From positions 1 through 64,000 of IMG/VR virus record IMGVR_UViG_3300036861_000632: 64,000 nucleotides of DNA, one strand, 5' to 3'. Source of the stretch: a virus. Below the pieces are notes generated by a model, which did not search any database, was not told the DNA's origin, and saw nothing but the letters and a program-made list of their open reading frames with translations. Made by a program: the position numbers and the translations under genes. Positions 12,644 to 16,991 of the stretch are shown here, piece by piece. Position 1 is the first letter of the stretch. Every line of letters begins with the position of its first letter.

Positions 12644-12672
12644 TTGCACTCCTCGCGGTTTATGATTATGAG
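12644..12672 (+). promoter_or_regulatory. Candidate promoter of the plus-strand island (TTGCAC-N17-TATGAG)
   Basis: Lies in the short divergent intergenic gap, upstream of the leader ORF. Confidence 0.3.
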
Positions 12673-12683
12673 GATTGGCAGCA

Positions 12684-12728
12684 ATGAATATCGAGTTTCC
12701 GAACGACGAACTGAAGCACGGCGGGTAA
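12684..12728 (+). CDS. 14-aa leader peptide MNIEFPNDELKHGG reading into attC-1
   Basis: ATG 12684 is in frame with CCG AAC of attC-1; TAA 12726-12728 lies in the attC loop. Confidence 0.45.
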   Translation: MNIEFPNDELKHGG

Positions 12729-12823
12729 AACCAACGACTCAAGATATGAAAACAGCGACCGAACAACCACCGACTCCGCCAACTGCAACGGCTCTAGCCG
12801 TTGCTTCCAGTGATGGGTTCTCT
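12698..12823 (-). mobile_element. attC-like site 1 (126 bp)
   Basis: Plus strand: AAC-gacga-ACTGAAGCACGGC ... GCCGtTGCTTcCAGT-gatgg-GTT. Two one-sided extrahelical bases (T, C) and 5-nt spacers. Confidence 0.8.
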
Positions 12824-13186
12824 GGCGTCGAACTCATCGCCCGCGAACGCGCTCGACAAATCAGCGTGGAAGGATGGACGCCCGAACACGATGACAGCCA
12901 CGACAAAGGCGAACTGCTCGAAGCCTCCTACGCCTACGCGAAAGCCGCCATCAAATGTATCAAGCATGAATACTACCGCATCATCAACGACCCGCCTCCT
13001 GAATGGCCGTGGGAAAGTGAATGGTGGAAGCCGAGTCCCGATGCCATCCGAAATCTGGAAAAGGCCGGTGCGCTGCTCGCCGCTGAAATAGACCGGCTAA
13101 AACGCGCTCAAGGCAAGCCGGACGAAAAGATGAGCCACTGCGAGCCGGAAGCGGCGCATGGCTCGCACGAGAAAGGTTCAAAATGA
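12746..13186 (+). CDS. Cassette 1 gene: conserved phage hypothetical protein (IARERARQI..EGWTPEHDD...WPW..WWKP family)
   Basis: ATG lies inside the attC-1 loop; the C-terminus is encoded by attC-2. Confidence 0.75.
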   Translation: MKTATEQPPTPPTATALAVASSDGFSGVELIARERARQISVEGWTPEHDDSHDKGELLEASYAYAKAAIKCIKHEYYRIINDPPPEWPWESEWWKPSPDAIRNLEKAGALLAAEIDRLKRAQGKPDEKMSHCEPEAAHGSHEKGSK

Positions 13187-13247
13187 AATCAAAACTCAAA
13201 TCGAAAACCCGCGCTGCTCGCAGTTGCGCTCCATCGCCTGGTTCGGC
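13117..13247 (-). mobile_element. attC-like site 2 (131 bp; crossover triplet GAC instead of AAC)
   Basis: GCCGGAC-gaaaa-GATGAGCCACTGCGAGC ... GCTCGCAGTtGcGCTCcATC-gcctg-GTTCGGC; three extrahelical bases. Confidence 0.8.
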
Positions 13248-13446
13248 GCACGTTGACGCGCTCTACAAAGCGGTCGCGAATTACGTGAAAGCCAACGGCG
13301 GGAAGTTGGTGGTGGTTGGTGGTGTGAGAATCGAAGAATGGCCGGGCGAGCCTGACCTCGTGTTTCACGTCGCCATCAAGTGCATGGGGCGGAAGCCGGT
13401 CTTCGTTGCGCCGAACGATGAAGTCAGCGAAGTGGCGGGTCGCTGA
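13183..13446 (+). CDS. Cassette 2 gene: hypothetical protein
   Basis: ATGA overlap in the attC-2 loop; ends PNDEVSEVAGR* inside attC-3; cassette ends are complementary over 10 bp (13241-13250 vs 13407-13416). Confidence 0.7.
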   Translation: MKSKLKSKTRAARSCAPSPGSAHVDALYKAVANYVKANGGKLVVVGGVRIEEWPGEPDLVFHVAIKCMGRKPVFVAPNDEVSEVAGR

Positions 13447-13504
13447 CGTTGAAATTAACCCGTGGCGTTCGCCCCGCCACTTTCGCTGAACTGAATTGTT
13501 ATGT
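13410..13504 (-). mobile_element. attC-like site 3 (95 bp), abutting the integrase remnant
   Basis: GCCGAAC-gatga-AGTCAGCGAAGTGGCGGG ... CCCGCCACTtTCGCTGaACT-gaatt-GTTATGT. Confidence 0.85.
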
Positions 13505-13820
13505 CCTGGCAACTACAAACCAAACACATCGGCTCGGTGCTCACCATCCAAGAATGGAATGAGCGCATGAAAGAGGAACTGCGGGCGGCGGAAACCTGCT
13601 CACCGCATATCGTAGAGCAAATCAAGCAGGTGGACGCTCTAGTGCGCAATGAAGTGCGCCGCACCACCTTCGCCATGCGTATGCCACGCACTGTCTGAAT
13701 GCTGGCCAAAATCCTCGCGCCATTCAGCAGGCGATGGGGCATAGCCAGCTTGAAACCACAATGGGGTATATGCACGCAGAGGCATTGAACGTAAAAAGCC
13801 CACTGGAATTTCAAGCATGA
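13501..13820 (+). pseudogene. intI: Integron-type tyrosine recombinase remnant (internally deleted, frameshifted)
   Basis: Start-less frame 13653-13820 gives PHHLRHAYATHCLNAGQNPRAIQQAMGHSQLETTMGYMHAEALNVKSPLE: HxxRH, GH, the catalytic Tyr and the IntI-like V.SPL(D/E) tail. It is out of frame with ORF 13501..13698. Confidence 0.8.
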
Positions 13821-13954
13821 AAGAACACCGACTCATCTGTCAGCGTCGCTGTCTCCCAGGTGGTGGCTTCTACAAATGGACGCCCCGTAAGCCGCATCCC
13901 GTCGAATGCCCGAATTGCAAATCCCGAAACTGGAACCGCAAGAAAGCCGCCTGA
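13817..13954 (+). CDS. Small zinc-ribbon protein (45 aa)
   Basis: MKEHRLICQRRC...WTPRKPHPVECPNCKSRNW; ATGA-coupled to the integrase remnant; not in the ORF track. Confidence 0.6.
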   Translation: MKEHRLICQRRCLPGGGFYKWTPRKPHPVECPNCKSRNWNRKKAA

Positions 13955-13956
13955 CT

Positions 13957-16317
13957 ATGTTCAAGAACCTCCTCGCGCTGACCCATTCGCCCACGATTGA
14001 AACCGGCATCGGGCGCGTCACGCAGAACCTCTTTTCGCGCTTCAAACCGCACTTCGAGTCCATCGACATTTTCGCCATCAACTACAACGGGATGCCGCAC
14101 GCGATGCAAAAGGAATACACCCTCTATCCTCCGCCCCGTGGTGACGAGTGGGCGAGCCGGGATGGGCTGGGAGCGTTCTGCGACCGGATCAGGGTGGCCT
14201 TCGAGAATGGGCGCGGCTATTCGCACGTCTGGATGTGCGAGGAACCGCGCAGTCTTTCGCAGTGGAACTTTCCACAGACCATCAATCGCGCGGGCAGCCA
14301 TTTCGGATTCGTGACGGCGGGTTACTTCCCCGTGTGCTCGCAGATGGACGACAAGTGGCTGGACATCATCCGGGCGGTCGATTGCCCGGTGGCGTACACG
14401 AACTACGGTCTGACCGAGATGTTGCGCGGCAAGCGGGAACTGCTGTTCAAGGGACGCTCCAAGCCGGCGATCATCCCGCACGGCGTCAACCCGGAGATTT
14501 ATCACCCGGTCAAGCCGGAAGCGAGAATCGCCATGCGCTCGCGTCTCCAACTCGCCGAAAAGGATTTCGTCCTGCTTAACGTCAACCAGAATCAGCGCCG
14601 CAAAGGGCTGGTGAACTCGTTTCAAATCCTCGCCCTGCTCCGTTCAATGAACGTGCCGGCCGTGCTCATCATGCACATGCCGGATGGCAACGAGATTGAG
14701 GGCACGTCCATCAGCGCGATGGCGGATCAGCTTGGCGTCTTGCCGGCATGGTGGCGTTCGTCGGATGATCTTTTCCTCAACGGCCACGCGCGCATGGCGG
14801 AGACTTCGTTGAACCTCGTTTACAACTGCGCCGATCTCGTGCTGTCCACGACCTACGGTGAAGGCTTCGGCCTGAGTTTGATCGAGGGAGTGGCGGCGGG
14901 CTGCTGTGCCGCCATGCCGGACCACACGGCCTGCGCCGAGATTGCCGACGCCATCAACGCTTCACAGCCGGGCCGTGTCCTCAAGCTGCCGGTGTCTGAC
15001 ATCGCCATCGTCAACATGCGGGACGATTCGCGCGTGCGTTATCCGGTGGATGTGAAGGCGTCTGCCTTTGCCATTGCCGACCTGTACGGCAAAGAGAAGT
15101 GGCGCATCCGCGAACCGCTCTCACCCGCCATCCGCAACTGGCTTGATTGGGACCGCATCGCAAAGCAGTGGCTCAAATTTATGGACATTGAGAAGCCCGC
15201 GGTGCCGGAGTCCTACACCATCGAATCGTCGAGGCGGGTGATGATTCCGCACAGCGAATGCGTGGCGCCAACTCCGAGCTTTCAGAGGCAGACACCGTGG
15301 CCGAGTGGATTGGTCCCGCTGCCTGTCACTAAGGACATGGCTTACTTCAATTCGGGGCTGGTGCGCGGGCCGGATGCTCAACTGTGGCTGGTTTCACGGA
15401 AGGCGGTGCGGGTGAACCATCCGAAGCTGCTAGACCATAGTAATCTGGCGGCGATTGCCTTAAACGAGAACATGGAGCCGCGCCACGGATATTCGCTTGC
15501 ACAGCTACTCGCCGGGGACACGCAAGCGGATAGAGTGGATCGGGCAATCGAAAAAATGCTCGACCTTCCAAACCGCGAAACCGAACAGCACGAAGACCCG
15601 CGCGTCGTTTTTCACGCCGGCATGTTCTATGTCGCCTACGCCTCGTGGTCGCGAGAGACATGCATCCCGAACAGCAAGCAGCGCATGGCGGCGTTCAAGG
15701 ATTGGAACAGTCAGCCGATCGTTGGCCGCGAAATATTCTACGGCAACAACGACTCCGCCAATCCGGGCACGGAAAAGAACTGGCTGCCGTTCTTCCATGA
15801 TGGCGTCCTGCATCTGGTCTATCGGTTCGCGCCGCACATCGTCATCGCGCCCTACGCGCAAAACGGCGTCGCGCTGGTCGAATACCGGACGGCCACGAAT
15901 GACACCTGGAAATGGGGCGAGATTCGCGGCGGCACTCCGCCTGTCCGCGTGGGCGACGAATACATTTCGTTCTTCCATTCCTCAACGCCGTGGCGCGGGC
16001 CGTTCCGCCGCTATTACATGGGCGCGTATGCGTTCGCTGCCAAGCCGCCGTTCAACGTCACGCGCATCAGTCCGAAGCCGATCCTCGCCGGGAGCGATGA
16101 GGACTCGCGGTTGTGGGGCAAGAACAAGCCGGCGGTGATCTTCCCGTCCGGGGCGTTGCTTGAGAAGGAGGAGTGGCTGGTGACGGGCGGCTGCAATGAT
16201 GAGGCGACTTTCTGGATTCGGATTCCGCACAAGGAATTGGAGATGCGGGAGTGCTCCACGAACGATGAAGTCAGCCACACGGCTGGCCGAAAACCAGAAA
16301 GTGAAGGAATGAAATGA
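13957..16317 (+). CDS. GT4 glycosyltransferase fused to a GH130-like beta-propeller glycosidase/phosphorylase domain
   Basis: N-terminal TGIGRV, PHGV, NQRRKG and EGFGLSLIE (E-x7-E). C-terminal EDPRV, EKNWLPF, RGGTP, FFHS and VIFPSG. Confidence 0.8.
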   Translation: MFKNLLALTHSPTIETGIGRVTQNLFSRFKPHFESIDIFAINYNGMPHAMQKEYTLYPPPRGDEWASRDGLGAFCDRIRVAFENGRGYSHVWMCEEPRSLSQWNFPQTINRAGSHFGFVTAGYFPVCSQMDDKWLDIIRAVDCPVAYTNYGLTEMLRGKRELLFKGRSKPAIIPHGVNPEIYHPVKPEARIAMRSRLQLAEKDFVLLNVNQNQRRKGLVNSFQILALLRSMNVPAVLIMHMPDGNEIEGTSISAMADQLGVLPAWWRSSDDLFLNGHARMAETSLNLVYNCADLVLSTTYGEGFGLSLIEGVAAGCCAAMPDHTACAEIADAINASQPGRVLKLPVSDIAIVNMRDDSRVRYPVDVKASAFAIADLYGKEKWRIREPLSPAIRNWLDWDRIAKQWLKFMDIEKPAVPESYTIESSRRVMIPHSECVAPTPSFQRQTPWPSGLVPLPVTKDMAYFNSGLVRGPDAQLWLVSRKAVRVNHPKLLDHSNLAAIALNENMEPRHGYSLAQLLAGDTQADRVDRAIEKMLDLPNRETEQHEDPRVVFHAGMFYVAYASWSRETCIPNSKQRMAAFKDWNSQPIVGREIFYGNNDSANPGTEKNWLPFFHDGVLHLVYRFAPHIVIAPYAQNGVALVEYRTATNDTWKWGEIRGGTPPVRVGDEYISFFHSSTPWRGPFRRYYMGAYAFAAKPPFNVTRISPKPILAGSDEDSRLWGKNKPAVIFPSGALLEKEEWLVTGGCNDEATFWIRIPHKELEMRECSTNDEVSHTAGRKPESEGMK

Positions 16318-16391
16318 GCGCAACCGATAACCAGAAACCGTCCGCCGAAGCCCAACGCGAAGCCGTGTTGTGCTGCACTGATTTGTTAGGC
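16257..16391 (-). mobile_element. attC-like site 4 (135 bp)
   Basis: CACGAAC-gatga-AGTCAGCCACACGGCT ... AGCCGTGTtGtGCTGcACT-gattt-GTTAGGC. R'' = GCCTAAC fits RYYYAAC. Shares 17 identical nt with attC-3. Confidence 0.85.
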
Positions 16392-16845
16392 TGCCCGAAT
16401 TGCAAAAGCACAAACATCATAAAACTCTGGCGGGCCGAGATCGTCCTGCCCGGTGACAACTCAGACAACTCAACCAAAGGATACCGATATGGATGCCATG
16501 ACTGCGACTCAATCTTCTACGCCCGTTAAGTGGCGCCCCGAACACGGCGGCGCATACCGCTGCCTGCGTGCCAACGAAGAGCATGGCACGAAGAAGGGTA
16601 AAATCTACATCTACGAAACGACCTTCTACCCTCAAGGCGAAATCTGCCACTACAACTCGCGCTGGCAAACGCGACTGCTCGGCGGATGCAACTCGCTTCG
16701 ACAACCCGGCGCGTTCGAGACGGTGACAATCTGCCCGTTCTGCGGCGCGACCATGTATAAACCGGAAGCCGATGCCAGCGGCTTCTTCCCGCTCGCCCAC
16801 GATGCTGCTGAGTGCGCGAAGAAAACCGGAGACTCGTCAGCCTAA
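16314..16845 (+). CDS. Cassette 4 cargo: Cys-rich hypothetical protein(s), ORFs 16314..16529 and 16453..16845 (possibly one frameshifted gene)
   Basis: ATGA overlap in the attC-4 loop; CPNC, CHDC and CPFC motifs; cassette ends complementary over 9 bp (16385-16393 vs 16838-16846). Confidence 0.55.
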
Positions 16846-16991
16846 CGCAAAGTTAGGGCATTGCCACCGGACGGAAGCGAACTCGATGACCCACAACCAC
16901 AACACCACGAAGACTAAATATGCACTACAAAGCGACTTAGAAGCGATTTCCTTCGCGCAATTGATGAATGTTGCGCTAAACGAAAACATCC

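Follow-up and report, generated by a model that had tools for sequence, protein, structure and literature searches.

Textbooks present integrons as machines for gene capture, whose attC sites count as untranslated spacers that follow each gene. Does this description also hold for phages, or can the sites themselves be part of the genes that they separate? The question is raised by an operon in a virus genome (IMG/VR record IMGVR_UViG_3300036861_000632; complete, 93,586 bp, with direct terminal repeats), the first 64 kb of which we refer to as the window, meaning the whole stretch of DNA that was analysed (64,000 nucleotides). Structural genes occupy the minus strand up to ~12.57 kb, and from 12.68 kb onwards the plus strand carries an operon with palindromes at four gene junctions. 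A first reading of the letters and open reading frames (ORFs) of the window, hereafter the original prediction, had proposed that these palindromes are attC sites which the upstream gene enters with the crossover triplet as an in-frame codon, and that the stop of this gene and often the start of the next are carried in the loop. The observation is confirmed by our analysis and its interpretation is supported: we consider it probable that the phage carries, at 12.68-16.86 kb, an integron cassette array in decay, consisting of four attC sites (S1 to S4), a collapsed site and the remnant of an integron integrase (IntI), in which the attC sites are read in a fixed frame. Arrays of this family lie upstream of intact IntI genes in viral contigs that number well over a hundred.

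All four sites lie on the plus strand and are entered by an upstream reading frame. At S1 (12698-12823; boxes TCCGAAC, with the AAC at 12702-12704, and GTTCTCT, with the GTT at 12817-12819), this frame is a leader mini-ORF of 14 codons (12684-12728, plus strand), which is preceded by GAGGA at 12670-12674, 9 nt 5' of its ATG, and, as had been noted before, crosses the AAC in frame as F-P-N-DELKHGG before it stops; the loop holds the leader stop together with the ATG of g1 at 12746. At S2 (13117-13247; boxes GCCGGAC and GTTCGGC, the latter at 13241-13247), g1 reads K-P-D-EKMSHC... through a GAC at 13121-13123 and stops at 13184-13186, within a loop that contains the g1/g2 ATGA. At S3 (13410-13504; boxes GCCGAAC and GTTATGT), where two bases bulge from the 3' arm of a 16-bp stem, g2 crosses the AAC (13414-13416) as A-P-N-DEVSEVAGR, with the stop at 13444-13446. 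Finally, at S4 (16257-16391; boxes CACGAAC, with the AAC at 16261-16263, and GTTAGGC at 16385-16391), g5 reads S-T-N-DEVSHTAGRKPESEGMK and stops at 16315-16317, and the loop contains the g5/g6 ATGA. Each of the four sites has a stop in frame with the crossover triplet; at S1, S2, S3 and S4, this stop follows the triplet by 24, 63, 30 and 54 nt, respectively. The claim that the triplet itself is an in-frame codon stands for all of them, with the qualification that the codon is AAC (Asn) at S1, S3 and S4, but GAC (Asp) at S2. The start codons are likewise placed as originally described, with the ATGs of g1, g2 and g6 between AAC and GTT in the loops of S1, S2 and S4, ATGA overlaps at g1/g2 and g5/g6 preceded by purine-rich tracts (GAGAAAGG at S2 and GAAGGA at S4), and, at S3, an ATG (13501) that immediately follows the GTT (13498-13500). 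As a result of this arrangement, codons 17-25 of g1 are the 3' arm of S1, the 5' arm and loop of S2 encode its final 22 residues, and the 5' arm and loop of S4 encode the last 19 residues of g5.

We built a home-made covariance model, R1, from 11 attC-like sites that neighbour genes for IntI-type integrases; all of these sites come from other viral contigs and none from the window. In the consensus of R1, AAC pairs with GTT (three box pairs), both sides then have 5 unpaired nt and join in a 16-bp stem, whose 3' arm has two bulged bases, and a variable loop tops the stem; compensatory changes are found in 12 of its 19 pairs. Run over the 64-kb window, to which the following E-values refer, R1 matched S3 (13408-13506; 67 bits, E 2.4e-17), S1 (12702-12819; 26.5 bits, E 2.4e-5), S4 (16263-16385; 19.6 bits, E 0.0027) and S2 (13122-13242; 18.2 bits, E 0.0068), all on the plus strand, and gave no fifth match at E < 1. 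The four sites align to the family consensus, are 87-135 nt long, and display the features by which attC sites are defined, namely an imperfect palindrome with an unpaired central spacer, extrahelical bases on one arm, a variable terminal loop and a length of 57-141 nt. Their terminal boxes agree with RYYYAAC...GTTRRRY at S1, S3 and S4, and depart from it at S2, which has the GAC. In addition, the full-span fold of S3 has a z-score of -4.7, and a nucleotide profile search (nhmmer) with S3 matched 12 sites in other contigs, while for S2 the box pairing and the stem are recovered in the minimum-energy fold. Comparison within the genome by nhmmer and Smith-Waterman alignment identified S1, S3 and S4 as weak reciprocal best matches and found S2 unrelated to them by sequence. 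When folding was restricted to windows of 90-110 nt, a significant hairpin was seen at S3 alone; S1, S2 and S4 were missed because their right arms lie 70-120 nt downstream, inside the next gene. Our own finder for AAC...GTT hairpins was too unspecific and was left unused, the pattern CWGCGAA...TTCGCWG showed no enrichment in metagenome-assembled genomes (MAGs), and searches with single window proteins found no related loci.

The wider family places these sites in an integron context. An integrase alignment led to at least 147 viral contigs that encode an IntI of the same clade as the remnant, and several of these contigs also encode the DnaB helicase or the Pol-beta-like gene of the phage under study. 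Over 86 IntI loci, R1 found 186 sites, nearly all of them on the intI strand and upstream of intI, in rows of up to nine sites with a spacing of 300-700 nt, and their boxes (GCCGAAC/GCCTAAC and GTTCGGC/GTTAGGC) are canonical integron cores. Full-length look-alikes of S3 were found by nhmmer in 10 of the 80 loci kept from the integrase scan. Example arrays are found at 371-5792 of L243 and 1162-5830 of L225, within the IMG/VR loci L225-L304. Moreover, the boxes of adjacent sites are complementary at all four variable positions in 57% of 92 pairs, compared with 10% within sites, 8% in a reversed control and 4% at random. Half-boxes meet in a circular cassette, and the complementarity of adjacent boxes therefore argues that the sites are real cassette boundaries. 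In the window, it holds for S2-S3 (GTTCGGC/GCCGAAC) and for S4 and the box at 16838, and fails for S1-S2 and S3-S4.

Two stretches of the operon have the make-up of cassettes. One is g2 (13183-13446, plus strand; 87 aa, no assigned function), an intact cassette unit whose first base is the C of the S2 triplet and whose last bases are the GCCGAA of S3. The other comprises S4 together with g6 (16314-16529) and g7 (16489-16845), plus-strand ORFs for small zinc-ribbon-like proteins, as a single cassette unit (16314-16845) that ends in CAGCCTAA↓C. At this end lies a stemless box pair on the plus strand (16838-16860; GCCTAAC, 5 nt, GTTAGGG), to which R1 gives a weak match (10.4 bits, E 0.095 in 4.4 kb). 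The box contains the stop codon of g7 (TAA), and CAGCCTAAC (16838-16846) exactly complements GTTAGGCTG of S4 (16385-16393), 9/9. The pair probably represents an attC that has collapsed, closing the last cassette and marking the end of the array.

A feature that sets this array apart is the strand on which its genes lie. On the plus strand, the AAC stands at the 5' end of each site and both bulges are on the 3' arm. In attC sites, the bottom strand has the AAC in R' at its 5' end and its extrahelical bases near L'', and is cut by IntI in the AAC (Nivina et al., 2016, PMC5027507). The position of the bulges and of the AAC therefore indicates that the gene strand is the attC bottom strand and that the genes run backwards compared with classical cassettes. 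In codon-usage scoring trained on integrase genes, the plus-strand ORF was favoured in 70 of 83 inter-site intervals. The geometry of the platform itself is classical, with the array upstream of intI and the attC bottom strand being the intI coding strand. With the cassette genes on the bottom strand, every attC therefore comes to lie inside coding sequence. This differs from the classical layout of a top-strand gene followed by a largely untranslated attC, since the ORFs found here overlap the sites on both sides.

Is the frame in which the sites are read a property of the family? We examined 145 non-redundant sites and took as the upstream ORF the longest open frame, provided that it had at least 50 codons and was 1.5 times as long as the runner-up. 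As the original prediction had anticipated, the phase of the AAC is far from uniform: of 117 sites, 79 have it as a codon, 32 have it displaced by one base and 6 by two, and the bias holds over 110 unrelated upstream ORF clusters (74:31:5; chi-square p 4e-15). The ratio is stable in each score tertile, at non-seed loci (55:27:4) and under stricter ORF criteria (65:24:1). In the class that is shifted by one, 26 of 32 upstream ORFs stop on the TAA of TAAC, and this stop stays with the upstream gene because the cut is at AA↓C. About 95% of cassettes would then be compatible with any neighbour. The site also contains the next start in 60 of 102 clear cases; among 78 junctions, 16 are overlaps of 4 nt, and at 50 the stop and the start are within 20 nt of each other.

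The alternative that fares best accepts real attC cassettes but regards the fixed phase as a by-product of their origin, from a common template or from an arm that was once coding, and not as something kept for safe shuffling. We think this unlikely. In its favour, the sites belong to a single sequence family with a conserved 5' arm, for which common descent of the arm is plausible. Against it stands the diversity of what has been joined: the ORFs upstream of 113 sites fall into 110 clusters without relation to one another, and each is in register. A by-product also sits uneasily with the distribution of stops: a stop in the AAC frame is found at 99% of sites, at a median of 36 nt past the AAC, compared with 79% and 59% in the other two frames, and the stop of the minority class coincides precisely with the TAA of the box.

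If the sites are translated cassette boundaries, the tail of a protein should belong to the site and not to the protein, and the original prediction had proposed a search for homologues with shared cores and swapped tails. Such homologues exist. Two homologues of g2 keep its core, one of them (P0002) as far as ...FVAPN, after which the tails differ, and P0002 also conserves the N-terminus for which the S2 loop and 3' arm code in g2. Nine close homologues of g1 read ...KP, then [DEG]-[NE], and then continue into unrelated tails, one of which (..DKVSH..) resembles the tails of g2 and g5; tails of the type KP[DE]N were absent from the g1-family loci of IMG/VR and JGI. Most of the 1498 homologues of g1 are ~100 aa long and lack the tail. 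Likewise, the homologues of g5 end in ...LCSI, ~19 residues before the end of g5, without a tail. Together with the in-frame stop at 99% of sites and the 60 of 102 starts within sites, the swapped tails support the proposal that each cassette carries its own start and donates a tail and a stop to the gene upstream. The further proposal that reordering would keep the frame agrees with the phase bias, and translational coupling is predicted to be kept as well.

The same tails, with the consensus P-N-D-E-V-S..., could be read as functional signals of the peptide (a degron, for instance, or a tag for sorting or packaging), to which the palindrome would be secondary. A loose consensus does recur across unrelated proteins, including P-N-A-E-V-S-E-A-A-D... 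and P-N-D-K-L-S-E-S-G-G... in family members, which resemble the tails in the window, and the codons for A-G-R in S3 and S4 differ at third positions only. This consensus is, however, what the conserved arm encodes, and the tail varies in length from 1 to ~30 residues, with ten sites stopping two codons past the AAC. Close homologues are tail-free, the stem pairs covary at the nucleotide level, and a likeness to the coding part of S4 persists in the 3' half of the S1 element, which is non-coding. We therefore regard a peptide signal as improbable, and prefer to see the tail as the translated arm of an attC site.

Comparison of contigs shows where homology breaks. The gene end ..TGG CAG AAC occurs in three contigs with three different site interiors, and the break falls right after the AAC. 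Seven other inter-contig alignments end 3-16 nt past the AAC, and none of them takes the site along with the upstream gene; in the pair L242/L238, the stem moves with the downstream gene. These breaks fit a crossover at AA↓C. In a few cases both ends of the site are involved: in L303 (700-860), L302 (4830-5300) and L301 (2300-2460), and again in L251 (3780-3960) and L260 (3410-3590), the interiors differ between flanking genes that are 87-98% identical, with breaks at the AAC and at about the GTT. Since strong identity resumes from the GTT in two pairs, a second breakpoint lies at or near this triplet, and such exchanges perhaps reflect top-strand events. An exchange at both ends is not expected from bottom-strand recombination alone, and a unit composed of a site and the gene behind it is thus not the whole story.

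What is left of the integrase is found between S3 and S4. The C-terminal 53 codons of an integron-type tyrosine recombinase lie on the plus strand at 13659-13820 (PF00589, 2e-11; TIGR02249, 1.7e-12), and weaker similarity by tblastx reaches back to ~13596, through an in-frame TGA at ~13653, which gives a remnant of 53-75 codons. The nearest full-length relatives are 58-83% identical, are encoded in Verrucomicrobiota-type MAG contigs and have the IntI-specific region; the best of them, at 83% identity, passes TIGR02249 with 274.8 bits against a cut-off of 265, and the MAG contig of one relative has phage genes in common with the phage under study. No intact or other integrase was found in the 93.6-kb genome, nor was an attI or a cassette promoter (Pc) identified. 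The locus thus falls short of a complete integron and qualifies as a cluster of attC sites lacking an integron integrase (CALIN), with four sites in 3.7 kb and an integrase remnant. By its boxes, the S3-S4 interval, which holds the remnant, g4 and the 2.4-kb g5, is not a cassette. The ORF g3 (13501-13698, plus strand), whose start resembles a cassette gene of contig L253, overlaps the remnant in another frame, and because this cassette-like start runs into the remnant, a deletion of ~1.4 kb or more probably removed the rest of the array, attI and ~240-265 codons of intI. Without an intact integrase, with GAC in S2 and with unmatched boxes at S1-S2 and S3-S4, the array in the phage under study is probably inactive on its own; a host IntI might conceivably act on it in trans.

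The presence of an integrase remnant between two similar sites also allows for a different history, in which S3 and S4 are the attL and attR of an integrative element with its integrase, or the product of a Campbell-type insertion through short homology, and S1 and S2 are older scars. An exact 17-nt direct repeat does flank the 2.85-kb segment with the remnant, and duplicated gene starts flank other genes of the genome. The 17-mer, however, simply reflects the 5' arm of the attC family in near-consensus form, none of the four sites lacks a full palindrome or its boxes, arrays in relatives comprise up to nine sites upstream of intI, and exact 17-18-mers recur by chance several times in the genome, so that we consider such a history very improbable; a search of IMG/VR with the exact 17-mer returned chance matches only. 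Just as improbable is the idea that the hairpins are RNA or transcription elements (terminators, processing sites or sequences like repetitive extragenic palindromes) and not recombination sites, since, in spite of their position at operon gene junctions and the view that attC sites act as weak terminators (Qi et al., 2023, PMC9892861), they have no T-run and no Rfam match, possess canonical core boxes and a tight linkage to IntI, and show a complementarity between the 3' box of one site and the 5' box of the next that has no RNA-level rationale. Scans for promoters, for terminators and against Rfam, which holds no attC family, gave no match.

The plus-strand genes of the window have clear homologues. 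The first, g1 (12746-13186, plus strand; 146 aa), belongs to a large phage family without assigned function (PHROG, 4e-32 over residues 29-131). A similarity between the N-termini of g1 and g6 was considered and rejected, as it was undetectable by BLASTP; their likeness stems from the fact that both translate attC 3' arms. Downstream of the integrase remnant lie g4 (13817-13954, plus strand), taken from the list of ORFs, and g5 (13957-16317, plus strand), a protein of 786 aa which, according to Pfam and PHROG, combines a GT1 glycosyltransferase with a GH130-like domain. Homologues like g5, of 550-800 aa, are common in metagenomes, and the GH130-like domain has the mannoside phosphorylase fold. 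A 15-nt exact repeat common to g4 and g6 (13907-13930 and 16392-16415) encodes the zinc-ribbon motif C-P-N-C-K, and the two may be related small zinc-ribbon proteins that flank g5. Outside the window, adjacent genes share their first 8-12 codons at 66015/66107, 73544/74216, 81397/81693 and 85592/85801, and in one pair the repeat is exact over 35 nt. Such repeats suggest that genes were inserted at the starts of translation, and represent a junction type distinct from the attC sites.

Several points weigh against our conclusion that the operon holds a translated cassette array. The E-values of R1 are rough, and its seeds were found via S3, which may have biased the model towards S3-like sites. 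In free-energy z-scores, the full-span minimum-energy folds of S1, S2 and S4 are no better than those of shuffled sequences; their loops of 58-75 nt account for the lack of significance, and it is the structure-and-sequence model that argues for these three sites. Some of the IMG/VR contigs are possibly bacterial and not viral. The assignment of the plus strand to the attC bottom strand draws on the position of the bulges and on the geometry of the platform. Furthermore, in L303/L302 and L251/L260 the site interior moves with neither flank, with strong identity only from the GTT, and the stems of these pairs differ by compensatory changes. Lastly, the recombination and expression behaviour ascribed to all members of the family is deduced from their sequences.

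Based on these results, we propose a mechanism in which recombination and translation would meet at the same triplet. The upstream ORF crosses 5'-AAC-3', the known cut triplet of IntI, as an in-frame Asn codon and continues through the 5' arm, which encodes a short tail of the form N-[ADV]-[EK]-[VL]-[SRC]-[ED]..., to a stop near the loop, and the next ORF begins in the loop or just past the GTT, often in overlap with the stop (ATGA). An exchange at AA↓C would then swap the tail, the stop, the next start and the next gene as one unit, and the upstream gene would stay in frame. The operon would be transcribed through the array towards intI, such that attC hairpins could also form in the mRNA, where a ribosome finishing the upstream gene in the 5' arm would open the stem ahead of the next start. 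The frame rule and the in-frame stop would preserve this coupling after any exchange at AA↓C, and the class with TAA in the box would be self-contained and equally safe. By analogy, the leader at S1 may act in translational entry in the manner of ORF-11 of attI1. From the patterns in these sequences we infer that IntI still moves, or once moved, cassettes by a cut at the AAC described here, that mRNA hairpins form and coupling is of importance, and that selection keeps the phase locked.

Whether these arrays amount to an integron class of the phages' own, in which cassettes lie backwards, the crossover triplet is a codon in fixed phase, any order of cassettes leaves genes intact and coupled, and the arrangement is maintained by selection and driven by phage IntI, seems to us evenly balanced. 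If so, it would be a prokaryotic counterpart of phase-compatible exon shuffling. The sites described here are part of the genes, and a simple frame rule would make cassettes interchangeable within a tightly packed phage operon. A functional rule would explain how phages trade small accessory genes without breaking the translation of the operon, would connect attC hairpins with translational coupling in a way that can be tested, and would suggest that phages carry many IntI-type integrases and cassette arrays, a large resource that is still unexplored.

Gene shuffling at stem-loops has a reported precedent in phages. Arbiol and colleagues are said to have described, in 2010, promoter early stem-loop (PeSL) cassettes of T4-type phages, in which junction repeats flank small early genes that are shuffled; these cassettes reportedly are homology-driven and promoter-bearing, and differ from the array described here in having no integrase, no AAC/GTT core and no coding overlap. 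Integrons proper have also been found in phages: Qi et al. (2023, PMC9892861) reported integrons and CALINs in 21 phages, temperate and virulent, some with integrase genes or fragments, and showed that phage attC sites are recombined by IntI1 at G↓TT, according to the parts of the paper considered here. The attC arrays in phages are alike in the two studies, and those with sites in the same direction are called typical of bacterial arrays in these parts of the paper, which do not describe bottom-strand genes, translated sites or a fixed phase; the present family comprises at least 147 viral contigs with an IntI clade of their own. Our full-text literature search did not find reverse-coded cassettes, translated attC sites or a phase rule described, and the translated attC layout appears to be new with respect to bacterial integrons, phage integrons themselves having been published in 2023 (PMC9892861).

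Classical cassettes (Nivina et al., 2016, PMC5027507) and the phage arrays are alike in their RYYYAAC/GTTRRRY boxes, spacer, one-arm bulges and variable loop, in the position of the array upstream of intI and in box complementarity. In the classical case, however, a top-strand gene is followed by a largely untranslated attC and is expressed from the Pc promoter in the direction away from intI, whereas the phage genes lie on the bottom strand, run towards intI and extend into the site from either side. A closer parallel for translation across a crossover is provided by ORF-11 and ORF-18 of attI1, where a short ORF spans the crossover, the cassette gives an in-phase stop, and coupling arises from termination beside the start (PMC8876359). 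These are single leader peptides of class 1 integrons, whereas in the phage family full-length genes cross every attC, and about 95% of cassettes follow the phase rule. Finally, short ORFs within attC sites relieve the block that the hairpin imposes on translation (Jacquier et al., 2009, reviewed in PMC8876359). Such ORFs are occasional, small and on the top strand, and differ in this from the systematic overlap of neighbouring genes seen here, but the idea that a ribosome melts the stem ahead of the next gene is common to both.

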